The notes under the pieces: generated by a model
What the model was told of the DNA's origin: nothing
The model's database searches: none
Seen by the model: the letters and a program-made list of their open reading frames with translations, nothing else
Source: an uncultured Ectothiorhodospiraceae bacterium
GTDB lineage: Bacteria > Pseudomonadota > Gammaproteobacteria > XJ16 > Halofilaceae
Length of the DNA: 64,000 bases
Reading direction: 5' to 3'
Assembly: GCA_964445325.1 (NCBI GenBank)
Contig: CAYUKN010000002.1
Coordinates: 10,794-74,793 of the forward strand
Part shown: positions 11,568 to 62,921 of the stretch, piece by piece
Position numbering within the stretch: the first letter of the stretch is position 1
Layout of the letters: every line of letters begins with the position of its first letter
Translations under genes and position numbers: made by a program

Positions 11568-11642
11568 GGGCGGTTAGCTCAGCGGGAGAGCGCTGCCTTC
11601 ACACGGCAGAGGTCGCTGGTTCGATCCCAGCACCGCCCACCA
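11568..11642 (+). tRNA. tRNA-Val (anticodon CAC)
   Basis: 75-nt cloverleaf: GGGCGGT/ACCGCCC acceptor stem, GCTC/GAGC D stem, CTGCC-TTCACAC-GGCAG anticodon arm, GCTGG-TTCGATC-CCAGC T arm, encoded CCA. Confidence 0.97.
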
Positions 11643-25330: not shown

Positions 25331-26116
25331 TCAGTCCGCCAAGCGCCGCCGCAGAACGCGGGTCGCGATGACCAGCGCGGCCGCCCCATAAACGGCCACG
25401 ACCAAGACATGAACGAGCACCAGATCGGGGCTGGTGCCCGTCATCAATGGGCGCACCAGGGCGACTGCGTGGGCCAGCGGCAATAGCTGGGCCAGTGCCT
25501 GGACAACGTCGGGCAGCGTTGCCAAGGGGAAGAACACCCCCGAGACCAACAGCATCGGTGTCAGCGCCAGGGTGAAGTAGTAGAGGAAGAAGTCGTAGGA
25601 CGGCGAAACGGCCGTGATGACGAGGGCCATGGCAGCGAAGCAGAAACCGATGAGCGCGATCAGTGGCAACACCCATATGACCGCGGGGCCGGCGACCAGG
25701 CCGGCCAGGGTCGCCACGATCACCATCGCCACACCGCTGAAGGCGCCCTTGGTCGCTGCCCAAACCACCTCGCCCAGGACGATGTCGTCGACATTGAGCG
25801 GCGCATTGAGCATCGCCGACCAGGTCTGCTGCTGGACCATGCGCGTGAACGCGGAGTACAGCGCCTCGAAGCTGGCGCTGAACATGGTCGACGAGCACAC
25901 GATACCTGCGGCCAGGAACGCCATGTAGGGCATGCGCTCGACCTCGCCGACCAGGCGGCCGAAGCCGTAGCCGAACAGCAGCAGATACAGCAGCGGCTCG
26001 CCGAAATTGCCGAACACGGACGGGACCAGCAGCTTGCGCCAGACGCGCAGATTGCGGCGCCAGACCGCGACGAAGCGCAGGCTCAACTGGGGCCAAGGAC
26101 TGGTGGGATGGGCCAT
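25331..26116 (-). CDS. ABC-2 permease, NodJ-like
   Basis: VWRRNLRVWRK, GNFGEPLLYL, SGVFFPL, LPLAHAV. Confidence 0.9.
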   Translation of the reverse strand: MAHPTSPWPQLSLRFVAVWRRNLRVWRKLLVPSVFGNFGEPLLYLLLFGYGFGRLVGEVERMPYMAFLAAGIVCSSTMFSASFEALYSAFTRMVQQQTWSAMLNAPLNVDDIVLGEVVWAATKGAFSGVAMVIVATLAGLVAGPAVIWVLPLIALIGFCFAAMALVITAVSPSYDFFLYYFTLALTPMLLVSGVFFPLATLPDVVQALAQLLPLAHAVALVRPLMTGTSPDLVLVHVLVVAVYGAAALVIATRVLRRRLAD

Positions 26117-26134
26117 GGACGCTCCCCTTCGGGC

Positions 26135-27043
26135 TCAGTCGCGCAGCTCGTGGCCGGTCAGGCGCAGGAACACATCCTCCAGGTTGCCGCGGCGGATGTG
26201 GTAGTCGAGCCCCTGGGTTTCCTGAAGCGCGGCGAGCAATGGATCGTCGTCGTGGGCGTAGAGCAACAGCGTGTCGCCGACCTGCTCACAGCGGTCGACC
26301 AGCGCCGCGCCCACGTTGCGCCCCCAGTCGACGGCCTGCTCGCCGCGCAGCTCCAGTACATGCGGCTCGATCCAGGCGGCCACGAGATCACGGGGACGCC
26401 CGAGCGCGACGATGCGCCCGTGGTCGACGATGGCCAAGCGATCGCACAAGCGTTCGGCCTCTTCCATGTAGTGCGTCGTCAGGATCAACGTGACCCCGTC
26501 ATCGCGCAGCTGACGCAGGCGCTGCCAGATATGCTGGCGGGCCTGCGGGTCCAGGCCGGTCGTGGGCTCGTCGAGGAGGATGAGGTCGGGCCGATTGACC
26601 AGTGCCCGCGCCAATGTGAGGCGCCGCCGCATGCCCCCCGAGAGGGCCGTCACAGGGGCCTGCTCGCGGCCCTCGAGGGCGGCGAAGCGCAGCAAACGGT
26701 CGATCCGCTCGCCCATGCCTGCCTCGAGGCCGAAATAGCTGGCCCATGTGGCCAAGTTCTCGCGCACCGTGAAGTCGGGATCGAGGGCATCGGTCTGCGG
26801 GACCACTCCCACCCGCGCGCGCAACGCGCGCGCCTCGTCGGGCACGGCGTGGCCCAGTACGCGCAGCATGCCGTCGCTGGGCCGGGTCAAACCCAGGAGC
26901 ATCCGTAGCGTGGTCGTCTTGCCCGCGCCATTGGGGCCCAACAGGCCAAAACACTCGCCACCGGTGACGCTGAGATCGACGCCGTCGACCACGGTCAGCT
27001 CCCCGTAGCGCTTGCGCAGACCTTCCGCTCGGATTACGGCCAT
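26135..27043 (-). CDS. ABC ATP-binding protein, NodI-like
   Basis: GPNGAGKTT, LSGGMRRR, LLDEPTTGLDP, LTTHYMEEAE; start ATG 27043. Confidence 0.9.
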   Translation of the reverse strand: MAVIRAEGLRKRYGELTVVDGVDLSVTGGECFGLLGPNGAGKTTTLRMLLGLTRPSDGMLRVLGHAVPDEARALRARVGVVPQTDALDPDFTVRENLATWASYFGLEAGMGERIDRLLRFAALEGREQAPVTALSGGMRRRLTLARALVNRPDLILLDEPTTGLDPQARQHIWQRLRQLRDDGVTLILTTHYMEEAERLCDRLAIVDHGRIVALGRPRDLVAAWIEPHVLELRGEQAVDWGRNVGAALVDRCEQVGDTLLLYAHDDDPLLAALQETQGLDYHIRRGNLEDVFLRLTGHELRD

Positions 27044-27132
27044 GGTCGCTGCCTCTGCGTGGGAACCGGTCGCGCACCCTGGCGGCACGCGCGACAATCG
27101 CGGGGTTCGCGTGGATCCGCCAGGCCGATGCA

Positions 27133-27705
27133 TTGTCGCAACCAACCGACAACACGCTGACCCGGCAGGCCCACGAATGGATCAAGCCCGCCCTGGGGCC
27201 AGGGCGGCGGGCACTCGACGCCACCGCGGGCAACGGTCACGACACGCTGTTCCTGGCCGAGGCCGTTGCCCCGGGCGGCCGGGTCGACGCCTTCGACATC
27301 CAGGGGCTCGCGCTCCGCCGCGCCCGACGCCGCGTGGGCGCGCTCGTGCACCGCGTGCGGCTATGCTGGCACCGCGCCGACCACGCCCGCATTCCGCGCC
27401 ATCTCGGGGCCGCCGCGATCGATGCCGCCATGTTCAATCTGGGCTGGCACCCGGGCGGCGACCGGCGGCTGGTCACCCGTCCGGCCACCACCCTGGCCGC
27501 GCTGAGCGCCACCGCCGAACGCCTGCGCTCCGGCGGACGCCTCTCGGTTGTCGCCTATCGCGGCCACCCGGGCGGCGCGGCCGAGGCCGAGGCCGTCGCC
27601 GACTGGCTCGAGCGCCTCGATGGTGCGTTTCGTGTCGAGCCGGCGCAGCCGGCGAGCGCGCGCGACCACGCCCCCGTGCTCTACCGCGTCTGGGTGGTCC
27701 GTTGA
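27133..27705 (+). CDS. Class I SAM methyltransferase, YtqB/MnmM family
   Basis: DATAGNGHDT, FDIQ, FNLGWHPGGD, YRGHPGGAAE. Confidence 0.8.
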   Translation: MSQPTDNTLTRQAHEWIKPALGPGRRALDATAGNGHDTLFLAEAVAPGGRVDAFDIQGLALRRARRRVGALVHRVRLCWHRADHARIPRHLGAAAIDAAMFNLGWHPGGDRRLVTRPATTLAALSATAERLRSGGRLSVVAYRGHPGGAAEAEAVADWLERLDGAFRVEPAQPASARDHAPVLYRVWVVR

Positions 27706-30173
27706 TCCAGCTTGCCCCGGCAACGGCGCAGCGCTTGCGCCAGTTGACTCGCCGAGGCGTAGCGCCGCTGCGGCTCCTTCTCCAGGCAGCGGTTGGTGAT
27801 CGTGGTCGCGCAGGTCGGTAGCTCCGGGCGCAGGCGCCGGAGCTCGCGGTGGCGATGGTGGCTGATCCGATACATCAGGCTCGACAGCGAGTCGCCCTCG
27901 AACGGCATCTCGCCCGACAGTAGCTGGTACAGAGTCACACCCAGGGAGAACAGATCGGAGCGCCCGTCTAGCGCACGCGATGCGAGCTGCTCCGGCGACA
28001 TGTACGAGGGACTGCCCAGGATCGTGCCAGTGCGTGTCTGGCGCTCATCGAGCAGGCAGGCGACACCGAAATCGGTCACCGTGACATGGCCCGTGGCGCG
28101 ATCGTAGACAATGTTGTCCGGCTTGATGTCGCGATGCAGCACATGCTCGGCGTGCGCGGTCGCCAGGGCATCGGCGACCTGCGCGAGTGCATCGAAGACC
28201 TCATGGGCGGGCAACAGCTCACCGGACTCGGCGTGGGCGTTGAGTGGCGTCCCCCGCAGGTAGTCCATCGCGATGTAGGCGAGATCCTGCTCCTCGCCGA
28301 CGTCGTAGACCGTGACGATGTTCGGATGCGACAGGCGCCCGGCCGTCTCCGCCTCGCGCAGGAAGCGCTGCTTGACCTCCTCGAGCGTCTGGCCCTCGAA
28401 CTCCTGATCGAGCGGCATCGTCTTGATCGCCACCTGGCGCCCGATGCGGGCATCTTCGCCCAGGAACACCGTACCCATGGCACCTTTACCGAGCTCGCGC
28501 TCGATCTGATAGCGCCCCAGAACGGGCTTGGCCGCGTCTTCTTGATCCAGGGCGAGCGCCTGGGTGGAGCTGCCATGGCGCCCGGCCAGGGTGACGCTGT
28601 CCTGGAGTCGATCGCAGCGCTGGGCACGCTCGGCGGCGTCGCGGTAGGCGCCGGCGTAGTGGGTGCAGAATCGGAAGGCCTCGGCCGCTTCGGGCAGGCG
28701 GCGGCGGCGCTCCAGGTCGAGGGCGAGGCCATACATGCGCTCGACCGTGGCGGTGTCGGGATCGCACTGGCGCAGGCAGCGCAGCGCATCATCGAGGCGC
28801 CCGGCCTCGCGATGGGACTCGGCGAGCGCCCGATTGGCACGATTGACCGCGTCGCGCAGCGAGGCCACACGTGCTCCCACCCCCCGGGCACCGACGATAG
28901 CCGCATGGCCGACCACCAGTGCAGTTACGGGTGCCATCAACGGGATCCAGGCGTTTCGCACCAGCAGCGTCACAAGCTCGGCGTTCACGGCGACGACGCC
29001 AACCAGCGCCGTCACGATCCAGCCGGCGGCCGTACCCAGGCGCGGTACCGCCAGCGCGAGATAGATCAGCACCAGCGCGAAGACGGCCGCACGCACCCCG
29101 ATCGCCCACGGTGGCGTCGAGACCAGGCTTTGTTGGTGGAGACCGGCGACGACGCGGGCCGCCCGGGCCGCCGGGGGCAGCGCCCCCGCGGCCTCCGTGG
29201 CCACCGCGGGGGCCAGTCCCACCACGACGCTGCGCTCGGTGAACGCGGTCGGCTCATGCGAACCCGCCAGCACATCGGCGGCCGACACCGCGTCCATGCG
29301 CACCGAATCGCCGCCGGTCGAGCCGGCGAGGCGCACCGCCAGGCCGGGCCCCGTGGCGAAGCGGCGCTCGCCCACGCGCAGGCGGTGGCCGCGTTCGACG
29401 CCGATAGCGCCGGCCTCGACACCCCGGGCCTGGGCGTAGACGAGCAGCGCGAACGAGGGCAGCCATGCCTCGGCGTGCGTCCGGGCCAGGCGGATCGCGC
29501 CATCGCCGCTGGCGGCCGACTCCAACAGGCCGACCCCGGCGGCTGCGCCGGCGATCGGCTCGACCGGGGGCTGCAAGTCCCCGGCGAAGGCCCGGGACCG
29601 CGGGGCCAACCAGTGCAGCGGCCACCGATTCGCCGGCGCCCCATCCAGGGCAACGCGCTCGAACGGGGGGGCCAACCCGGTGGCCGGCCGGTCCACGCGA
29701 CGAAAATCGGCGCCGACGATAGTGGCGCCGTGGGTTCGCAGGCTGCGCCCGAGGGCAGCGTCGGTGCCCAGGCGTTGGCGGGCCTGCGCGAGCACCCTGC
29801 GCGCGCCTTCGCCCAGCCCGCCGCCCGCCTCCGCGGCCAGCCCATCGAGCACCCGGAGCGGGTAGGCGTACTGCGGCTGATCCAGGGCCAGTGCCAAACC
29901 GACGGCCGCCGGATCCCCCGCGTGGACACGCTCGTTGAGCCGCGCCAGGCGATCCCGCGGCCACGGCCATGGGCCGACCTGCTCGATCGCGGCCTCGTCG
30001 ATGACAACCATCGTGACCGGCGCGTCCGCGCCGGGCGCCTCACCGAGCGTGCCCATGGCGTCGAATACGACCCGCTCGAGCGGACGCAGTACCCCCGCCG
30101 CGGTCGCGAGCACGGTCGCGGCGACGATCACGAAGGCGATGATCCCGTTGCGGTAGTGTAGCGCTTTAGCCAA
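27681..30173 (-). CDS. CHASE2-domain Hanks-type Ser/Thr protein kinase
   Basis: CHASE2 (VVIDEAAIEQVGPWPWPR), 3 TM, then GKGAMGTV, VAIK, HPNIV, HRDIKPDN, DFG, GSPSYMSPE, DLFSLG; start set at TTG 30173. Confidence 0.9.
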   Translation of the reverse strand: MAKALHYRNGIIAFVIVAATVLATAAGVLRPLERVVFDAMGTLGEAPGADAPVTMVVIDEAAIEQVGPWPWPRDRLARLNERVHAGDPAAVGLALALDQPQYAYPLRVLDGLAAEAGGGLGEGARRVLAQARQRLGTDAALGRSLRTHGATIVGADFRRVDRPATGLAPPFERVALDGAPANRWPLHWLAPRSRAFAGDLQPPVEPIAGAAAGVGLLESAASGDGAIRLARTHAEAWLPSFALLVYAQARGVEAGAIGVERGHRLRVGERRFATGPGLAVRLAGSTGGDSVRMDAVSAADVLAGSHEPTAFTERSVVVGLAPAVATEAAGALPPAARAARVVAGLHQQSLVSTPPWAIGVRAAVFALVLIYLALAVPRLGTAAGWIVTALVGVVAVNAELVTLLVRNAWIPLMAPVTALVVGHAAIVGARGVGARVASLRDAVNRANRALAESHREAGRLDDALRCLRQCDPDTATVERMYGLALDLERRRRLPEAAEAFRFCTHYAGAYRDAAERAQRCDRLQDSVTLAGRHGSSTQALALDQEDAAKPVLGRYQIERELGKGAMGTVFLGEDARIGRQVAIKTMPLDQEFEGQTLEEVKQRFLREAETAGRLSHPNIVTVYDVGEEQDLAYIAMDYLRGTPLNAHAESGELLPAHEVFDALAQVADALATAHAEHVLHRDIKPDNIVYDRATGHVTVTDFGVACLLDERQTRTGTILGSPSYMSPEQLASRALDGRSDLFSLGVTLYQLLSGEMPFEGDSLSSLMYRISHHRHRELRRLRPELPTCATTITNRCLEKEPQRRYASASQLAQALRRCRGKLDQRTTQTR

Positions 30174-30385
30174 GGCCGATCCTTTCTGCGTGCCGGGCGC
30201 GAGCGGCGCCGCCCGCCCCACCCGGACACGAGCCAGCGCGAGGCGAGGTTAGCACGCGCCCGCAGGGCCGCAAGCGCGCGCCGTCGGCGCCATCGGGATG
30301 GCACCGCCGGGCACCACGCGGCTCGGCCTTTGCATGGTCGGTCTGCGCCCGTAGCCTTGGGTTGCCACCTACCCCCGGAGACGCC

Positions 30386-54411: not shown

Positions 54412-56880
54412 TCAGCCGTCGCCCACATCCGGTTCGCCCATTTCGTCGCCCCCTTGCCCACGCTGCGCCGGCGCCCGCGATGACGCCTGGGTGTCCAGCA
54501 CCGAGCGATCCGGCGGCATGCGGCTGAAACGCACATCGCGCCGGGGGTAGGGGATCTCGATGCCGTGCTGGCGGAACGCCCGATCGATCTGGAGGTTGAT
54601 GTCGCTCTGGACGATCACGAAGTAGGCGATGTCGCGGATGAACACCCGCAGCTCGAACTCGAAGCCGGAATCACCGAACTGGCGCATCACGACCTCCGGC
54701 GGGGGTGCGAGCACCGGGTCGGTGATGACCTGGGCATGCTCCTGCGCAATGGCGAGCAGGATGGAGTGGACTCGGGTCGTATCCGTGCCGAAAGCCACCC
54801 GGACGGGCACGGTCACACGGCCGATCGGATCCCTGAGCATCCAGTTGACCACTTGGCTCTGGATGAGCTCGGAGTTGGGCACGATGACGTCGGCACGGTC
54901 GAAGGTCTGGACCTGGGTCGAGCGGATGCTGATGCGCTTGACGAAGCCCTCGGTACCGCCCACGACGATCCAGTCGTCGGTCTTGACGGGCCGCTCGAAC
55001 AACAGGATCAGGCCGGAGACGAAATTGTTGAAGATGTTCTGCAGGCCGAAGCCGATACCCACCGACAGAGCGCCCGCGATCAGCGCCATATTGGTGAAGT
55101 TCACCCCGGCCACCGCGAGGCCGGCGAGGATGGCGATCGCGCCCCCGAGGTAGCCCGTGATCGTGACCAGGGCCTCGCGCGCACCGCGCTCCATGCGGGT
55201 GCGCCTGAGCCAGCGGTGGCTCATGCGCTGCTGGACCCACCCCGATACGCCCAATAGCACCACCAGCGTGATCAAACCCCAGAGGACGCTGATGGGCACC
55301 AACTCGAAGCGTCCGATGCTGAAGCCCTCGTTGATCACACGCAGCAGCCAGGCGAGGCCGGTGTCCGACATCCCCCAGCTCAACAGCACCAGCAGCAGGA
55401 AGGCGCTCCAGACGCCGACGGCCACCAGGATGCGCAGCCATATCAGCCCGGGGACACGGCGGTCACCGCCCACACCGAGGGTCTCGCGGACACCGCGCTG
55501 CCAGCGATAGCGCCCCTCGTCGAGGCCGTCGAAGAACTCGGCGAGCAGACGCCAGACGAACAGCGACGCGCCAAACGACAGCAGCGTGCCCACGATCCCG
55601 GCGACGACGTACTCGGCCATATTGCGATAGCCGAGCCACTCCGCCCCCAGCGCGAACAGCATGCCCGCGGTCAGCACGATCCGCGGCAAGCGGGTATCGC
55701 GCCCGCTCAACAGCTCACTGACGATCCAGATGATGCGCATGAGCTCGACGACGAGGACCGTCGCGGCGATCACCCGCAACAGCTCGCGCACAGGCTCGGG
55801 GAAGCTCTCGACCGCGAGCGTCGCCGAGAACAACGCCATCAACAGCACCAGCACGGCCAAGACCCGAAGACGCCGCGTCAGGCGGCGCAGCGAGGCTTCC
55901 GGAGCCGGCATGAACGGATGCGCGGGATCGCACGGCGCGAGGAAGACGCGGATGAGGAAGATGAAGAAGAAATAGCCGGCGAGCCCGTAGGCCAACAGCG
56001 TGATGAACGACCATTCGGGCGTGTCGTAGCCGATGAACGTGAGATAGGCGCTGGCGACGAGGCTGGTCGCCAGCGGCGGCAGGATGTTGGCGACACACGC
56101 GAGCACCGACTGGACGAAAGCCGACATCAAGGTGGCGCCCCCACCCAGGCGCTCGGCGGCGCGGAACAACGGGCGCCGCGCATAGACGCTGCCGCCGGCG
56201 CACAGCAACAACAGGCCGACGCCACCGATGAGTTCCGCCCAGCTCAGGTTGTCGATGCCGCTCGAGCGCAGCAGGAACAGCCGCGCCGACGTCCATAGCT
56301 GCTCAGGCTGGCGCAGGTTATCGGCCACGACCACCCAGATGGGGTCCTCGCGCTCGAGCAGGCGTTCGGTGAGCCACTCCTGCTTGAGGCGGGTTAGCCG
56401 GTCCTGGAGCTCATTGGCTCGGAGCTCGAGCACCCGGCAAAGCTGGAGCTGCTTTTCTATGCTGTCGCGCCGGCGCTCGAGTGCTTGGCGCTGCTGCTCG
56501 ATGCCGACGGCTTCGCGGCCACTGATATCACCGAGGGTGTCGAGTTTGCCCTGGACACTCTCCAAGCGGGAGTCGTTCTGGTTGATGCAGCGCTTGGCCT
56601 GGTCGCGGATCGCCGGTATGCGCCCGAGGAACGCCTCGAGCACGTCCTCGCCGGGCGAGGGCTCGATGCGCAGTTGACGCTCCATCTCGCTGAGACTGCG
56701 ATCCGCGTCGGCCACCACCTCCGGATCGATCGCCGAGGCCTGCCCCTGCGCACCCGCGGCGAATGCCGCCGGGCCGATCAGCACCAGAGCCAGTGCCACA
56801 ACACCACCGAAGCGGGCGAGCCCGCGCGCTCGCCCGCTCATGCCGGCTCGACCCGGGATGAAGCGCGCCAACGACGTCAT
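54412..56880 (-). CDS. Large MscS-family mechanosensitive channel (MscK-like)
   Basis: Periplasmic coiled coil, many TM, GALSVGIGFGLQNIFNNFVSG, VPNSELI, IEIPYP; start ATG 56880. Confidence 0.92.
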   Translation of the reverse strand: MTSLARFIPGRAGMSGRARGLARFGGVVALALVLIGPAAFAAGAQGQASAIDPEVVADADRSLSEMERQLRIEPSPGEDVLEAFLGRIPAIRDQAKRCINQNDSRLESVQGKLDTLGDISGREAVGIEQQRQALERRRDSIEKQLQLCRVLELRANELQDRLTRLKQEWLTERLLEREDPIWVVVADNLRQPEQLWTSARLFLLRSSGIDNLSWAELIGGVGLLLLCAGGSVYARRPLFRAAERLGGGATLMSAFVQSVLACVANILPPLATSLVASAYLTFIGYDTPEWSFITLLAYGLAGYFFFIFLIRVFLAPCDPAHPFMPAPEASLRRLTRRLRVLAVLVLLMALFSATLAVESFPEPVRELLRVIAATVLVVELMRIIWIVSELLSGRDTRLPRIVLTAGMLFALGAEWLGYRNMAEYVVAGIVGTLLSFGASLFVWRLLAEFFDGLDEGRYRWQRGVRETLGVGGDRRVPGLIWLRILVAVGVWSAFLLLVLLSWGMSDTGLAWLLRVINEGFSIGRFELVPISVLWGLITLVVLLGVSGWVQQRMSHRWLRRTRMERGAREALVTITGYLGGAIAILAGLAVAGVNFTNMALIAGALSVGIGFGLQNIFNNFVSGLILLFERPVKTDDWIVVGGTEGFVKRISIRSTQVQTFDRADVIVPNSELIQSQVVNWMLRDPIGRVTVPVRVAFGTDTTRVHSILLAIAQEHAQVITDPVLAPPPEVVMRQFGDSGFEFELRVFIRDIAYFVIVQSDINLQIDRAFRQHGIEIPYPRRDVRFSRMPPDRSVLDTQASSRAPAQRGQGGDEMGEPDVGDG

Positions 56881-58004
56881 TGACCGACTCGACCGATGCG
56901 CTCCATTGCGGTGTCGAGGCGCGCCCGGGGACACCCGAAGTTCAGTCGCACGAAGCCCGGCGCCCCGAAGGCGCGCCCGTCGGACAGGCCGACCCCGCTC
57001 TGCTCGAACACGGGCGCGGGCTCGCGCTCGTCGATCGCGCGCGCATCGATCCACGCCAAATAGGTCGCCGCCGGCGAGTTCATCGAGAGACGCGGATGAT
57101 CATCGATCGCGGCCTGCGCCCGCTCGCGATTGTCCCGCAAGTAGGCGATCAGGCGAGCATGCCAGTCGGCGCAGTCGCGCCAAGCAGCGAGCGCCGCGGT
57201 GAAGCCGAGGGCATTGACCCCGGGCACGAAACCGGCCCGTACGCGCTCGAATCGGGCGCGTAACTGCGCGTCGGGGATCACCGCCAGCGAGCACCCCAGC
57301 CCGGCGATATTGTAGGTCTTGCTCGGCGCGAGCAGCGTGATCGTGCGGCGCGCGATCTCGGGGCCCAGCGTCGCCAGGGGGATGTGGGGCTTGTCATGGT
57401 CGAGGATCAGGCCGCAGTGGATCTCGTCGCTGCAGACGAGCAGGTCGCGCTCGACACAAAACGCGGCCAACCTTTCCAGCTCGTCGCGCGAGTACACCCG
57501 GCCCGTGGGATTCTGCGGGTTGCACAGCAGCAGCATCGCCGTATCGCAGGTGAGCGCCGCGTCCAGGGCCTCGAAGTCGATGGCCCCCGCGGCGTCGGCG
57601 AGCGGCACGCGCACGGTTTCGCGGCGGGCCCGGGCGGGTGCCTGGAGGAACGGCGGATAGATGGGCGTGAACGTCGCGATGGCATCGCCGTCGCGCCCGG
57701 CACTCGCGCACGCCAGGTGGATCCCGGGGACGAGGCCGGGCAGCCATACGAGCCACTCGGGCTCGATCGACCAATCGAAATGGTGACGCAGCATCGATAC
57801 GGCGGTGTCGTTGAGCTCGTCGGGCGGCCGTGTATAGCCGAAGACGCCGTGCTCAACGCGTGCGTGCAGCGCCTCCAGCACGGGTGGCGGCGCGCTGAAG
57901 TCCATGTCGGCGACCCACATGGGCAGGATGTCCCGGCCCATGTAGCGATCCCACTTCTCGCTCGCCGTGCCCTCGCGGTCGATGAGTTGGTCGAATTCTT
58001 GCAT
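56877..58004 (-). CDS. PLP-dependent MalY/PatB family C-S lyase / aminotransferase
   Basis: PMWVADMDF, HGVFGY, LCNPQNP, SDEIH, APSKTYNIAGL, RLNFGC; start ATG 58004. Confidence 0.92.
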   Translation of the reverse strand: MQEFDQLIDREGTASEKWDRYMGRDILPMWVADMDFSAPPPVLEALHARVEHGVFGYTRPPDELNDTAVSMLRHHFDWSIEPEWLVWLPGLVPGIHLACASAGRDGDAIATFTPIYPPFLQAPARARRETVRVPLADAAGAIDFEALDAALTCDTAMLLLCNPQNPTGRVYSRDELERLAAFCVERDLLVCSDEIHCGLILDHDKPHIPLATLGPEIARRTITLLAPSKTYNIAGLGCSLAVIPDAQLRARFERVRAGFVPGVNALGFTAALAAWRDCADWHARLIAYLRDNRERAQAAIDDHPRLSMNSPAATYLAWIDARAIDEREPAPVFEQSGVGLSDGRAFGAPGFVRLNFGCPRARLDTAMERIGRVGQ

Positions 58005-58303
58005 CTCGTCTCCCGATTGCACGTGCATGGTAGGCGACGGGCCTGTATACGGCCACCCACGGCCCAGCGCTTCTGCGCCGCCGACGTGCGAGGCCCTGGA
58101 GCGCGATTCCGTGATTGGGTTCGCAGTCAGCAGACCACGCACAAGCCAACATGCATCGACGCCAGTGTTGCCTGCCCGCGCGGACGGCGGAATGGAGCCC
58201 GACGACCGTGGCGCTGCCCATGACTGTCCGCGGGCAGCGATGATACAAGGGGACGCGCTGGCGCGGCTTTCCAGTGAGCACGAACCAAAAAGGGGGTTGC
58301 ACC

Positions 58304-59080
58304 ATGTTGCAACGGATCGCCGGAGTTTGTACGGGGCTATTCCTGCTGACGACGCTGTCGGCATGCACCGTCGTCAACGAGACTGTCGATCAAGTGAGCG
58401 ACGCCACCAGCGACGCGCTCGAGAGCTCAACCAGCTCATCGGGGACGTCCGACGGCATGGGCATGGCGTCGATGGATCAGATGAGCATGCGCATGTTCCG
58501 CGCCATGTTCTATCAAGGTGGCTACGCGCTCGACACCCGGCGGTTCGAGCCGGGCGAGTACGTGCAATGGCAAGTCGAGGGCCGCGGCGATTCTGAGTGG
58601 TTCCGCAAGGCGATGCTCAAGCGCCGCCCCGACGGCAACGAGTGGTGGCGCCTGATCAACAAGACCAGTAGCGGCAAGATGATCATGGAGGCCTTGCTCG
58701 AGCCCGAGGACGATTCGGGCAGTCGGCGCATTCTGCGCCTGCGGCAGAAGCTCGGGCCGGATCAGAAGGCCGAGGAAGTACCCATCACCAAGGACAACGC
58801 GGATAAGTGGACCTTGGACCGCCAGCGTGAGCTCACCGAGGAGAGCTACAAGGGCATGAAGGTCGGCCGCAAGAGCATCTCGGTGCCCGCGGGCACATTC
58901 CGGGTCGACCATCTGCGCAGCACGCATCCCCAGCGCGGGGGCACGGCCCATTGGTATCTGACGGACGATGTCCCTGGCAGCGTGGCGCGCTACGTCTGGG
59001 AGAGTAATGGCAGCAAGCACACGATGTCGCTGAGCGACTATGGCGATGGCGAGACCTCGTCCCAACTGGGGGCGTTCTAG
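58304..59080 (+). CDS. Uncharacterised lipoprotein, beta-rich with VPAGTF (DUF3108-like) motif
   Basis: Lipobox LSAC; ISVPAGTFRV; start ATG 58304. Confidence 0.75.
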   Translation: MLQRIAGVCTGLFLLTTLSACTVVNETVDQVSDATSDALESSTSSSGTSDGMGMASMDQMSMRMFRAMFYQGGYALDTRRFEPGEYVQWQVEGRGDSEWFRKAMLKRRPDGNEWWRLINKTSSGKMIMEALLEPEDDSGSRRILRLRQKLGPDQKAEEVPITKDNADKWTLDRQRELTEESYKGMKVGRKSISVPAGTFRVDHLRSTHPQRGGTAHWYLTDDVPGSVARYVWESNGSKHTMSLSDYGDGETSSQLGAF

Positions 59081-59259: not shown

Positions 59260-60078
59260 GTGGACTGGTTGATGGGCTCACTGGGGGCTACGGTGGCCAC
59301 AGTGACCGGCGCGTTCGGCCGACCGATCGTCGCTGCATTCGTCTACGCGGTCGATCTGGCGGTGTTCATCTGGCAATCGCTCACCGACCGCAGCCGCCAA
59401 CGTCGCTTGTGGAACCGGGCCTCACGGCGCGCGATGGTCACCCAAGTCATCTTCACCGGTGTCGACGCCCTCCCGGCGATAGTCATCCTCTCGCTGGCGA
59501 TGGGTGCGGGGGTGATCGCGCAACTCGTGCTGGCGTTACAAGAGTTCGGCACTCAGAGCTACGTCGTCACCGTGATCACCGACCTCGTCGCCCTGGAGCT
59601 GGGCGCGCTCTTGACGGCGATCTTCTTGGTCGGCCGGTCGGGATCGGCGATCACCGTCGACCTGCTCAATATGAAGCTCAACAACGAAATCCATGCACTC
59701 GAGCTCCTGGGCATCAACATCAACGACTTCCTGATCGTGCCGCGTTTGGTAGGTTGCAGTGTCGCTCAGCTCGTGCTGGCGATCGTATTCTCTTTCGTTG
59801 CATTGACCAGCACCGTTTTCGTCACGGCCGTATTCGCGCCGATCAACCTGGCGCAGTATTTCCACGCCATCGTCGGCGCCTTCACGGGTCTCGATATCGC
59901 AGTTTTCCTTTTCAAGAATGCATTGTTCGGCTTGATCATCGGCAGCATCGCATGCTTTCACGGGCTGCAGATCAAGGACTCGGTCACCGAGATCCCGCAG
60001 CAAACACAAAAGGCGATCGTGTCCACACTGCTGGTGATTTTCGTACTGGACGGCATACTCGCCGGGGCATTGGGGTGA
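59260..60078 (+). CDS. MlaE-family ABC permease (MCE system)
   Basis: FTGVDALP, ELGALLTAIFLVGRSGSAIT, EIHALELLGIN..FLIVPR, AIVSTL. Confidence 0.9.
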   Translation: MDWLMGSLGATVATVTGAFGRPIVAAFVYAVDLAVFIWQSLTDRSRQRRLWNRASRRAMVTQVIFTGVDALPAIVILSLAMGAGVIAQLVLALQEFGTQSYVVTVITDLVALELGALLTAIFLVGRSGSAITVDLLNMKLNNEIHALELLGININDFLIVPRLVGCSVAQLVLAIVFSFVALTSTVFVTAVFAPINLAQYFHAIVGAFTGLDIAVFLFKNALFGLIIGSIACFHGLQIKDSVTEIPQQTQKAIVSTLLVIFVLDGILAGALG

Positions 60079-60833
60079 CCAGCGACCAGCCAATCGTTGC
60101 CGAGAACGTGACGACCGGCGCTCCCGAGCGCCCGCCGCTGTCGTGCCGCCTGGGTGATGAGCGCCTGGTATGCGTAATGGGCCCGCGCGCATGCCGGCGC
60201 GATTACATGAGGCTATTGGCGGGTGTCGATGCAGGCGCTGGCGGCGATCTCGATCTCCTCGGCTGGCCCGCCGGCAAGCTGGATCGAGCGAGGGCCCGTT
60301 GGCTGCGACGCCGCATTGGCTATATCGCACCGTATCTGCGGCTTTTGTCGGTGATCAGCGCTTGGCGCAACGTGCTGCTGGGGGTCACTTATCATGATCT
60401 GGGCGAACCGGCGAAGCGCGAAGAGCGTGCGCAGCATCTCATCGACGCGATGCCGGGCGCGGCGCATCCGGCGACGCTACCTGCTCACATGAGCCAGCTC
60501 CAGCACATGCACATGACGACCGCGCGCTCGATCATGCTCGAGCCTGCGTTCCTCTTCGCTGAGGATCCGTTTCGCGGCCTGGAGCACGACGAACGCCAGC
60601 GCCTGGGTGATTTCCTCGCGCGAGTTGCACCCGCTTACACCGGCACCGTCGTGGTCTCCACCGATGACGCAGGCTTCGCCCGCGATTATGCTGAACGCAT
60701 CGTGTTCGTTTCGCCGGAAGGGCATGGCGATTTCGCCGATTGGGCGGCGCTTCGCGCGAGCCGGGATGGCGCGGTCCAGGCGTACTTGCGACAGCGTTCT
60801 GCGGGCGAGGGGGCGCCCGAGGAGGAGCAATGA
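60075..60833 (+). CDS. Degenerate MlaF-like ABC ATPase (pseudo-ATPase)
   Basis: In frame within ORF 59205..60833, GTG start overlapping the mlaE stop. ABC fold recognisable (RRRIGYI, SAWRNVLL, MLEPAFLF) but Walker A, signature, Walker B and H-loop are all altered. Confidence 0.8.
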   Translation: MTSDQPIVAENVTTGAPERPPLSCRLGDERLVCVMGPRACRRDYMRLLAGVDAGAGGDLDLLGWPAGKLDRARARWLRRRIGYIAPYLRLLSVISAWRNVLLGVTYHDLGEPAKREERAQHLIDAMPGAAHPATLPAHMSQLQHMHMTTARSIMLEPAFLFAEDPFRGLEHDERQRLGDFLARVAPAYTGTVVVSTDDAGFARDYAERIVFVSPEGHGDFADWAALRASRDGAVQAYLRQRSAGEGAPEEEQ

Positions 60834-61849
60834 GCCAGCAGCAGCCCCACTATGTACACCGTGTGCAATACACCACGCAGGAGCGCATCGTCGGTGTGTT
60901 CGTGCTGATCGGTTTGGCCGTCGTTATTGGTCTGATGGTCGCGAAGGGCCAGAGCACGAATTTCTTCGAGGAGCGCATCACCTATCACGCGACGCTCGAC
61001 AACGCCCAAGGCGTGTCCACCGAGACACCGGTCAAGGTATCGGGCATCGAGGTCGGGCGGGTTTCCTCACTCGGCATCTCCGAGCAAAACCGGGTCGACG
61101 TCGAGTTCTTCGTCTACGAACGCTTCCGCGACCTCATTCGCGAGGATTCGCAGGGCGCACTGGGTAAGCTATCAATGCTGGGCAATGCCACGCTCAACAT
61201 CACCACGGGCTCACCGGAGCGTGAGCCGTTGCCCGAAGACGCCGAGATCCCCGTCGAGGAACCCCAGTCGATCAATGACCTAATCGCCGCGGCACGGCCG
61301 GTGGTCGAGCGCATGCGCAACGCCATCGAGGACGCCACACGGCTCATCGCGGCAGTCGATCCCGACGCTGTCAGCCAAGCCACCGACAATCTGGCGCAAG
61401 CGGCCGCTAACGCACGGCGCGTTACCGACGACGTGCGCGCGGGCAAAGGGCCAGTCGGCGAGATCCTCTACGGCGAGACCACACAGGCGCGCGTCGAGCG
61501 CACCACCGCGGCGATGGCCGAGACAGCGGAGCTCGCCGAGGCGCGCATGCGCGAGCTCGAGCCCGTCACCACCGACGCCGAGGCGACCATGGCCGCCTTT
61601 CGCGAGCTAGCCGAGCGCTTGCCCGCGCTCAGCGACGATGTCGATGCCCTGGTGGCCGGCTTCGACCGTACCGCAACGCTGGCGAATGAGCGCCTCGAGG
61701 ACCTGCCCGAGCTCACCACGGAAGCCGAGGTCCTGCTGGGCGAGGCCAACCGCACGATGAAGGGGGCGCAACGGATCTGGCCACTGTCCGAGGCACTCGA
61801 GGGCGATACGGGCACCACCGTGATCGAAGCGCAACCGGCCCAGCAATGA
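60830..61849 (+). CDS. MCE/MlaD family protein with long helical extension
   Basis: N-terminal TM, AQGVSTETPVKVSGIEVGRV, SMLGNATLNITTG, heptad-rich C-terminus; ATG 60830. Confidence 0.9.
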   Translation: MSQQQPHYVHRVQYTTQERIVGVFVLIGLAVVIGLMVAKGQSTNFFEERITYHATLDNAQGVSTETPVKVSGIEVGRVSSLGISEQNRVDVEFFVYERFRDLIREDSQGALGKLSMLGNATLNITTGSPEREPLPEDAEIPVEEPQSINDLIAAARPVVERMRNAIEDATRLIAAVDPDAVSQATDNLAQAAANARRVTDDVRAGKGPVGEILYGETTQARVERTTAAMAETAELAEARMRELEPVTTDAEATMAAFRELAERLPALSDDVDALVAGFDRTATLANERLEDLPELTTEAEVLLGEANRTMKGAQRIWPLSEALEGDTGTTVIEAQPAQQ

Positions 61850-61877
61850 TCGGCGGTGATCGGGCTTGGGGGCACGC

Positions 61878-62921
61878 GTGACGAGCAACCCGGACGAGCG
61901 CGAGCGCGCACGGCAGCGGCGCCACGCGGTGTCGGCAATCGCCGCCCTGGCCGCCTCGCTGGTGCTCGCCGCTTGCGTGAGCGACGCCCCCGAGGAGGCG
62001 ACGCAAGCGCCACCCCATGAGGGTCAGCAATTACTCGAACGCGGGGTTCGCTCATACGAGCGCCGTGACTACGAGGCAGCGGCAACCGACTTCACGCAGG
62101 CGCTTGCCTATTTCCGCAGCTACGACCTCGCCGACGGCGTGGTGCGCAGCCGAATCAACCTAGCGCGTATCGAGCTCGATCTCGGCCGCCCCGAGGCAGC
62201 ACACGATCACCTGGCCGCCGCCCGCGCGAACGCGGACCGGGCGCAAGATGGCGACTGGTCCGCCCGGTTGGACCTGCTCGACAGCTCCGTGGCGATCGAG
62301 CTGGGCGAGCTAGAGCGTGCCGTGCAACACATCGAACCCCACCTGCCCGACTTTGGCGACGATGCTCGCGTCGCCGGCAGTGCCGGCACGCTCTCGTCGG
62401 AGCAGCTGAGCTTTGTCGCCAACCGCGTCGCGGTGGCATTCGAGCGCGGCGACGGCGATCGACGGCAATGGCTGGCCCGCCTGCGCAATGCCCTGGCGGC
62501 GCAGGATGCGGCGAGCCCCTTGCTCGAAGGTCGGCTCGAGCGCTTTCGTGCCCGCCTCGCGGCGGACGACGGCGACGAGCGGCTTGCGCTGGAACGGCTC
62601 GACCAGGCCGTGCGCCACTACCAACGGGCGCGCCACCGTGCCGGCATTGCCGCCGCACTGGAACAATCGGCCGGCATCCATGCCAACCGGGGCGAACACG
62701 AGCGCGCGCGTAACCATCTCGATCGCGCGCTCTATCTCCATCTATCGGTGCGCAACGCGCGAGCGACACGCGCGAATCTCGACAAACGCTTGGCCTGGAT
62801 CGAACCCCAGTCGAGTCGCCGGATGGCGTTGCGCGCCTGGATGGAACGGCTGACCACGCCCGAGGGGGTCGACTGGAGTGCCCTGCGCGATGCGGTGATC
62901 GAAGAACCGGTCCGCCGCTAG
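61878..62921 (+). CDS. TPR-repeat lipoprotein
   Basis: Lipobox LAAC; repeated helical TPR-like units (AATDFTQALAYF, ALERLDQAVRHY); GTG start 61878. Confidence 0.8.
   Translation: MTSNPDERERARQRRHAVSAIAALAASLVLAACVSDAPEEATQAPPHEGQQLLERGVRSYERRDYEAAATDFTQALAYFRSYDLADGVVRSRINLARIELDLGRPEAAHDHLAAARANADRAQDGDWSARLDLLDSSVAIELGELERAVQHIEPHLPDFGDDARVAGSAGTLSSEQLSFVANRVAVAFERGDGDRRQWLARLRNALAAQDAASPLLEGRLERFRARLAADDGDERLALERLDQAVRHYQRARHRAGIAAALEQSAGIHANRGEHERARNHLDRALYLHLSVRNARATRANLDKRLAWIEPQSSRRMALRAWMERLTTPEGVDWSALRDAVIEEPVRR

Follow-up and report, generated by a model that had tools for sequence, protein, structure and literature searches.

Results

An MlaF-shaped gene translationally coupled on both sides

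The stretch of DNA analysed here (the window, 64 kb of contig CAYUKN010000002.1 from an uncultured Ectothiorhodospiraceae bacterium) carries on its forward strand a module of four genes, which code for an MlaE-like ATP-binding cassette (ABC) permease, an MlaF-shaped protein of ABC homology, an MCE/MlaD-like protein and a protein with TPR repeats (Table 1). The second of these genes is the subject of this report: judged by its sequence, its product is without every residue needed for ATP binding or splitting, and we refer to it as the pseudo-ATPase. The GTG start of the gene overlaps the TGA of the MlaE-like gene as GTGA (60075-60078), and its own TGA, which ends at 60833, overlaps the ATG (60830) of the MCE open reading frame (ORF) as ATGA (60830-60833), in agreement with a preliminary description of this DNA, in which the 252-residue ORF was called full length and translationally coupled on both sides. 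The first 30 residues precede the first internal methionine, and their conservation in the orthologues, among which I7, A9, P20, L22 and C24 are invariant, supports the GTG start. A scan for promoters and terminators returned nothing exceeding the shuffled expectation; a terminator-like hairpin with a T-run inside the frame (60325-60351, forward strand) is probably due to chance, because the count of such sites is below that expectation.

Table 1 Features of the window and of related loci.
Feature	Sequence	Position	Strand	Evidence and remarks
Upstream gene, 268 aa (amino acids)	window	58274-59080	+	Lipoprotein-type signal LLTTLSAC; lipobox from translation
MlaE-like ABC permease gene, 272 aa	window	59260-60078	+	Pfam MlaE PF02405, E 1.3e-49; TIGR00056, 3e-35; first gene of conserved core module
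MlaF-shaped pseudo-ATPase gene, 252 aa	window	60075-60833	+	GTG start; ABC homology; AlphaFold2 fold
Former Walker A, residues 36-44, GPRACRRDY	window	60180-60206	+	Alignments with canonical domains and E. coli MlaF
Best-conserved block of the family, residues 86-107 (PYLRLLSVISAWRNVLLGVTYH)	window	60330-60395	+	Family alignment
Former ABC signature, residues 139-143, MSQLQ for LSGGQ	window	60489-60503	+	Alignments
Former Walker B and D-loop, residues 159-170, FLFAEDPFRGLE	window	60549-60584	+	Alignments
Former H-loop, residues 195-198, STDD	window	60657-60668	+	Alignments; His replaced by Asp
MCE/MlaD-like gene, 339 aa	window	60830-61849	+	Pfam MlaD, 1.2e-14 over residues 50-127; TIGR00996, 2.3e-18
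N-terminal tail of MCE protein, residues 1-24	window	60830-60900		Motif HY[VI]HRxxY[ST]xxER[IL]VG
TPR-repeat gene, lipobox LVLAAC	window	61866-62921	+	TPR_12/TPR_2 matches; fourth gene of conserved module
Canonical ABC-2 type exporter pair	window	25331-27145	-	ATPase 26135-27145, permease 25331-26116
MscK/MscS-family channel gene (880-aa ORF)	window	54412-57054	-	Divergent, upstream of operon
Class I/II aminotransferase gene	window	56877-58364	-	Divergent, upstream of operon
ORF of 846 aa	window	27681-30221	-	Motifs read from translation
tRNA-Val (CAC)	window	11568-11642	+
GGDEF gene	L013	881-2362		Just upstream of module
dCache-PAS-HD_5 (HD-GYP-like) gene	L011	4875-6914		Just upstream of module
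CHASE2-guanylate cyclase gene	L014	5269-7581		Just upstream of module

The pseudo-ATPase has the fold of MlaF

At the level of sequence matches, the entire length of the pseudo-ATPase is recognisable as an ABC nucleotide-binding domain, and by more than chance. The NCBIfam models DevA, YbbA, LolD and FtsE align to residues ~29-211 with E values of about 1e-14 to 1e-9, and the best sequence match in the PDB is YbbA (5e-12), while Pfam ABC_tran (PF00005) stays below threshold with 15.2 bits for a cut-off of 25 (E 0.034). An AlphaFold2 model built on an alignment of 36 sequences reached a mean predicted local distance difference test (pLDDT) of 94.1 and a predicted template modelling score (pTM) of 0.91. 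When this model was compared with the PDB by Foldseek, E. coli MlaF from the MlaFEDB complex ranked first (6xgz, 6xgy and 6xbd) with template modelling scores of 0.82-0.85; these alignments span 239-247 columns and thus include the C-terminal extension. The comparison gave 1211 PDB matches at E<=0.001, and all 50 of the 50 listed were ATPase subunits of ABC transporters or complexes containing them. The helices of the C-terminal extension (residues 223-227 and 232-244) were modelled with high confidence, and the terminal V..YL aligns to VRQFL of MlaF, so that the predicted fold matches MlaF including an extension ending in V..(F/Y)L. E. coli MlaF is likewise encoded beside genes of the MlaE and MlaD families. 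In single-sequence and profile searches of the PDB, however, YbbA, LolD, ArtP, MacB and DppD all scored above MlaF, and the MlaF equivalog was not found among the top 25 NCBIfam matches. The label 'MlaF-like' given in the preliminary description therefore rests on fold, C-terminal extension and gene context, and does not extend to the sequence, which is no nearer to MlaF than to domains of the LolD, YbbA or ArtP type.

All catalytic motifs are replaced

Compared with E. coli MlaF, to which it is 20% identical, the pseudo-ATPase has replacements at Walker A, Q-loop, signature, Walker B and H-loop alike, and the motif strings noticed earlier (GPRACRRD, MSQLQ, FLFAED and STDD) were all recovered exactly in place. 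The Walker A site is without the Lys-Ser/Thr and the glycine-rich loop of the consensus GxxGxGK[ST] and is one residue shorter in the alignments. A canonical ABC domain has a seven-residue glycine-rich loop at the P-loop, whereas in our model strand 31-35 is followed by helix 38-48 after just two non-helical residues; this two-residue gap, together with the one-residue deletion in the alignments, indicates that the P-loop as such is gone from the predicted structure. The Q-loop Gln is absent, with APY at residues 85-87, and at the Walker B site FLFAED (159-164) stands for hhhhDE with the order of Asp and Glu inverted. The ATPase of a canonical ABC-2 type exporter pair elsewhere in the window has its motifs intact (GPNGAGKTT, LSGGMRRR, LILLDEPTTGLD and TTHYM) and serves as an internal control, since normal ABC motifs are kept elsewhere in the same genome.

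The new residues at these sites are themselves conserved. Within the clade of the window protein (the window clade), the invariant positions are G36, P37, R38 and R41 at the former Walker A, M139, Q141, L142 and Q143 at the former signature, L160, F161, A162, E163, D164, F166, R167, G168, L169 and E170 at the former Walker B and D-loop, and T196, D197 and D198 at the former H-loop. Altogether, 23 of 34 positions in the former motifs are invariant, compared with 60 of 218 elsewhere in the protein (odds ratio 5.5, Fisher p 9e-6). The motif positions are thus the best-conserved part of the protein within its clade. The preliminary description had spoken of eroded motifs, which is right in that all catalytic motifs are lost, but the positions have been fixed anew to a conserved sequence and were not randomised.

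The gene is under purifying selection

A homology search with the single protein found 6 close relatives only, so that an exhaustive profile search was needed for the wider family. Five orthologues with 54-76% identity and one truncated protein were obtained, all from metagenomes. The frames of the orthologues are full length, the replacements GPRACR[RH], M[ST]QLQ, [FI]LFAED and TDD are common to all of them, and the gene order is the same throughout, with genes for an MscK-like channel, an aminotransferase and a lipoprotein-like protein of 255-268 aa followed by MlaE, the pseudo-ATPase, the MCE protein and the TPR protein. The ratio of nonsynonymous to synonymous substitution rates (dN/dS) was calculated by the method of Nei and Gojobori (NG86) for the least saturated pairs. 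For the pseudo-ATPase gene it was 0.153 between the window and locus L001 and 0.224 between L003 and L010; in the comparison of the window with L001, the values for MlaE, MCE and the upstream lipoprotein gene were 0.078, 0.098 and 0.083, respectively. With dN/dS of 0.15-0.22, the pseudo-ATPase gene is under purifying selection. The comparison of orthologues proposed in the preliminary description thus yielded an omega of about 0.15-0.22 and not of about 1, and what the close orthologues have in common are the altered motifs, not intact ones beside a neutrally evolving copy.

These data bear on the simplest alternative, namely that the gene is a recently inactivated mlaF whose frame is open by chance. 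Such decay would account for the loss of all catalytic motifs, for a dN/dS above that of the neighbouring genes and for a broken operon in one related contig. It is hard to reconcile with six diverged orthologues (51-83% identity), in all of which the frame is full length and the motifs are replaced in the same way, with the low dN/dS of the two closest pairs, with a highly confident AlphaFold2 model and hyper-conserved motif positions, and with an architecture that is common to more than 100 representatives of the family described below. Based on the shared replacements, the dN/dS, the confident fold and the conserved motif positions, we rejected the pseudogene reading, which we regard as extremely improbable.

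The broken operon lies on a contig of 2.7 kb (L007, 1-2718 of CAYTWS010000344.1, a metagenome-assembled genome (MAG) of an uncultured Ectothiorhodospiraceae bacterium), which was the sole locus obtained from a scan of GTDB genomes with patterns specific to the close clade. Two genes of this operon are interrupted by in-frame stops, namely the upstream lipoprotein gene at ~238 (tgg to tag) and the MCE gene at ~2000 (cag to taa). MlaE has an internal deletion at ~1070, and a second deletion, at ~1335, fuses the 3' end of MlaE to codon ~91 of the pseudo-ATPase gene and results in a chimeric 'protein' (P0004). Either this operon is pseudogenised or the contig is a faulty co-assembly. The sequence of the window itself is present in sediment metagenomes; the sequencing runs found were of DNA only, with no RNA among them.

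The pseudo-ATPase belongs to a large family of ABC domains without the signature

An exhaustive profile search over 1.84 billion cluster representatives (50%-identity representatives) gave 59 representatives at E<1e-30, and the top 150 matches were mostly proteins of ~250 aa that aligned end to end. Among 120 matches of 225-300 aa that were aligned, the S-G-G of the signature (LSGGQ) was absent in 112, which we take as the family; their consensus at this site is LPAY[ML]xxLQRRxLxIARAL. In 60 of these 112 representatives, Walker A, the Asp-Glu pair of Walker B and the His of the H-loop are missing together, 13 keep all three, and the remainder are mosaics. The Q-loop Gln is retained in only 16. 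Whereas the preliminary description had treated the window protein as a single case, it is therefore an extreme member of a large family. The signature is lost from all 112 representatives of this family, and the other motifs to varying degree. A rough tree was built by neighbour joining with the 8 canonical matches as root; it is coarse, and counts drawn from it are indicative only. In this tree, the motif-retaining members are nearest to the root and the canonical outgroup, and the window clade is placed inside a large group that has lost all motifs. Parsimony on this tree requires at least about 13 changes at Walker A (again an indicative number), which suggests that motif losses were probably repeated. 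The window protein does not pass ABC_tran at E<=0.001, but 70 of the 79 members of the wider family do.

The positions conserved throughout the family are outside the nucleotide pocket and comprise G57, a block at residues ~87-107, LP at 135-136, R151 and P157. The block has the consensus PLLSV..GL.NV.LPALYH, with L90, S92, N99, Y106 and H107 invariant or conserved to at least 90%. By homology with known MlaFE structures, it would be located at the Q-loop and the start of the helical subdomain, in the groove that receives the coupling helix of the permease.

When a profile search was repeated with members that mostly lack the motifs, more than 100 family matches were obtained, all from metagenomes or MAGs, and no cultured or model organism was found among the matches listed; a search with mixed family members was overwhelmed by canonical ABC proteins. 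The source labels are generic, e.g. 'Gammaproteobacteria bacterium' or hydrothermal vent metagenome, and so are the annotations, which read 'ATP-binding cassette domain-containing protein' or 'MlaF ATPase subunit'. A specific family for the pseudo-ATPase was not found in Pfam or NCBIfam, and a literature search for degenerate or inactive MlaF, MCE proteins with TPR and fully dead ABC domains found no description of it.

The strong conservation of the former motif positions in the window clade would also be expected if the pocket still had a function, for instance if the domain had been repurposed for sensing or regulation and its pocket, Arg-rich at the former P-loop and acidic at the former Walker B and H-loop, bound a ligand other than Mg-ATP (a lipid head-group, say, or a cyclic (di)nucleotide) in order to gate the conduit formed by MlaE and MCE. 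In line with such a role, the genes just upstream of the module in three distant loci code for proteins of cyclic-nucleotide signalling (Table 1), and one of 79 family members has a weak Pfam match (3.5e-5) to MshEN, a domain that binds c-di-GMP. The sequence of the pocket is, however, conserved only in the close clade and not family-wide, signalling genes of this kind are very abundant in Gammaproteobacteria and none of them adjoins the operon in the window, the single MshEN match may be due to chance, and a ligand-binding motif was not identified in the pocket. Taken together, we consider a ligand-sensing pocket unlikely.

Partners encoded in the operon

Every operon context examined consists of genes for MlaE, a protein like a nucleotide-binding domain and a long MCE protein, in most cases with a gene for a TPR protein, and start/stop overlaps of 4 bp are kept in most loci. 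The MlaE-like protein of the window is 25% identical to E. coli MlaE (E 1e-13). The MCE protein has a conserved cytoplasmic N-terminal motif, a transmembrane helix, one MCE domain and, by prediction, a helical C-terminus of about 180 residues. A TPR-like gene coding for 323-359 aa was found at the same position in L001, L003, L005, L006, L008, L011, L013 and L015. In the distant members P0168 (L011), P0010 (L013) and P0013 (L015), the module comprises MlaE, the pseudo-ATPase, an MCE protein of 302-345 aa and a TPR-like protein of ~325-335 aa; in the locus of P0028 (L014), a member that keeps Walker A, Walker B and the His, a gene of 136 aa takes the place of the TPR gene. The gene upstream of the module, whose product had no match in Pfam or NCBIfam, has counterparts of 255-258 aa in L001, L003, L005, L006 and L008 and is absent from the distant family loci; its linkage is hence confined to the close clade.

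The N-terminal tail of the MCE protein comprises ~20 cytoplasmic residues, compared with only ~7 in E. coli MlaD. Its motif (Table 1) is invariant or nearly so in ten operons (the window, L001, L003, L005, L008, L010, L011, L013, L014 and L015), down to an overall identity of 25%, and the tail may be where the MCE protein contacts the pseudo-ATPase. A C-terminal motif, Q[RQ]xWP[LVI], is also conserved in the MCE proteins.

Mycobacterial Mce systems share an ATPase (MceG) that is encoded elsewhere in the genome. By analogy, a single copy of the pseudo-ATPase could be paired on the MlaE dimer with a canonical MlaF or an orphan ABC domain from elsewhere, with the active partner driving the power stroke. 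Many ABC transporters have one degenerate site (PMC7756269), and the basal members of the family, which keep Walker A, Walker B and the His but not the signature, could complement the signature of such a partner, for which only 64 kb of the genome were in view. In the window clade, though, Walker A and signature are both gone, which would leave both composite sites of a mixed dimer non-canonical. In addition, a homodimer of MlaE offers two equivalent docking sites and the pseudo-ATPase is translationally coupled to MlaE, which favours a 2:2 stoichiometry. No second PF00005 gene was found among the genes called in the related loci (up to 10 kb per side, with several contigs shorter), and none of the Mla type in the window. 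Since both composite sites would be non-canonical and a linked second ABC domain was not found, pairing in trans is disfavoured and in our view quite improbable. The only other ABC domain in the window, that of the exporter ATPase, was considered as a candidate partner and rejected; it is a canonical ABC-2 ATPase of the NodI-DrrA type with its own permease and is located 33 kb away.

Discussion

Comparison with known systems

The module differs from the E. coli Mla system in its gene order (E-F-D instead of F-E-D), in an MCE partner of 339 aa with a predicted long helical tail instead of the 183 aa of MlaD, and in having no linked gene for MlaB/STAS, MlaC or MlaA; STAS/MlaB was found neither in the five proteins of the operon (Pfam and NCBIfam) nor among the called genes of the related loci. 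It more closely resembles PA3211-PA3214 of P. aeruginosa and MpcEFDA of Brucella abortus, in which a core of the MlaE/MlaF type is combined with a single-MCE needle protein and an outer-membrane lipoprotein and which were proposed to span the envelope (PMC13631591, PMC12436622). The likeness extends to four genes coding for a permease, an ABC domain, an MCE protein of similar length (~310-340 aa), whose C-terminal needle is a tentative prediction in the window module, and, last, a lipoprotein. These systems were described with an ATPase subunit (PA3212, MpcF) and are set apart by these descriptions from the window module, in which the ABC domain appears dead. Furthermore, their lipoprotein is PqiC-like and octameric, whereas the last gene of the window module codes for a TPR lipoprotein, for which scans against Pfam and NCBIfam gave matches of the TPR type only and none to the PqiC family. 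The kind of module, with MlaE, ABC domain, MCE needle and lipoprotein, is already known; new is the ABC domain within it, which by its sequence is fully dead.

MCE systems that work independently of ATP exist in the form of PqiAB and LetAB (PMC12436622). As envelope-spanning MCE conduits without an ATPase, PqiAB(C) and LetAB provide a functional analogy for the window system, although their inner-membrane partner is PqiA or LetA and not a member of the MlaE family, they have no ABC-like subunit, and their MCE proteins contain 3 or 7 MCE domains. Among ABC transporters, TM287/288, CFTR, ABCB11 and others have one degenerate site, at which substitutions in Walker B, signature or H-loop are tolerated and conserved (PMC7756269). 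These transporters have one consensus site left and still bind ATP at the degenerate one, whereas a homodimer of the pseudo-ATPase would, from its sequence, have two dead sites and no P-loop.

A probable structural subunit of an ATP-independent conduit

The explanation that we favour and consider probable is that the pseudo-ATPase is catalytically dead but descends from a domain of the MlaF type, and that it acts as a still obligatory structural subunit of an ATP-independent, envelope-spanning MCE conduit. Two copies would bind to the MlaE dimer from its cytoplasmic side, via the conserved block at the Q-loop and helical subdomain, and would form a fixed structural clamp or assembly platform instead of a motor. 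They may in addition keep hold of the conserved tails of the six MCE subunits in the cytoplasm. What was the ATP pocket would, in the window clade, be filled by the conserved R38 and R41 and the acidic residues E163, D164, D197 and D198, which could, rather speculatively, pair as an internal network of salt bridges replacing Mg-ATP. The complete complex would consist of two MlaE, two pseudo-ATPases, a ring of six MCE subunits with a helical needle and the TPR lipoprotein at the outer membrane. It could be a conduit for hydrophobic molecules that works like PqiAB(C) and LetAB on the ABC-permease chassis of the PA3211-14/Mpc type. In the preliminary description, a pseudo-ATPase acting as a scaffold or regulator, pairing in trans and an ATP-independent transporter had been put forward. 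The full-length fold of the MlaF type, the absence of the motifs and the purifying selection uphold the pseudo-ATPase as such; pairing in trans is the least favoured of the three mechanisms, and the scaffold or regulator and the ATP-independent transporter are mutually compatible.

Several observations weigh against this explanation. The loss of catalysis, including that of ATP binding, was read from the sequence together with a predicted model, and the mechanism is what we infer. The pseudo-ATPase evolves 1.5-2 times faster than its neighbours in the operon, which points to a somewhat relaxed constraint, and the broken operon on contig L007, unless it is an assembly fault, suggests that the system may be dispensable in some lineages. 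Because 13 family representatives keep three motifs, nucleotide binding may still play a role in some members. A canonical mlaF may be located elsewhere in the genome, of which about 64 kb were covered. The helical tail of the MCE protein was taken, as secondary structure only, from a single-sequence model of low confidence (pLDDT 50.6), and the Pfam 'Helical_needle' matches in its orthologues are faint only, so that the long needle should be regarded as tentative.

More tentatively, and with somewhat less than an even chance in our estimate, the entire unnamed MlaE/MCE family of uncultured Gammaproteobacteria may have given up ATP hydrolysis. The signature would have been lost at its origin and the other motifs progressively and repeatedly, with the ABC domain being retained as a clamp of structural or regulatory function.

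It is the ATP motor that defines ABC transporters. If our explanation is true, lipid conduits of MlaE and MCE are usable without ATP hydrolysis and a dead ABC domain is present in more than 100 sequence clusters, which would be a natural experiment on the need for ATP in Mla-type transport and a case of a fully pseudo-enzymatic pair of ABC domains. It would also bear on the direction and energetics of Mla-type phospholipid trafficking. The family forms a graded natural series, from members that keep Walker A, Walker B and His via partial losses to members with none, which could be used to separate docking, dimerisation, nucleotide binding and hydrolysis, and hence the needs of assembly from those of transport. 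For most members, the labels 'ATP-binding cassette domain-containing protein' and 'MlaF ATPase subunit' are probably wrong in what they imply about function. These points should be of relevance to specialists in ABC and lipid transport.

Other features of the window

The channel gene and the aminotransferase gene upstream of the operon are both divergent from it. All contigs of the close clade show synteny for this neighbourhood as well as for P-II/Amt genes located further upstream. No tRNA or Rfam match other than the tRNA-Val gene was found in the window. The product of the 846-aa ORF has the Ser/Thr protein-kinase motifs HRDIKPDNIV and TDFGVA in its C-terminal third and hydrophobic stretches in its mid-region that may be membrane-spanning segments.

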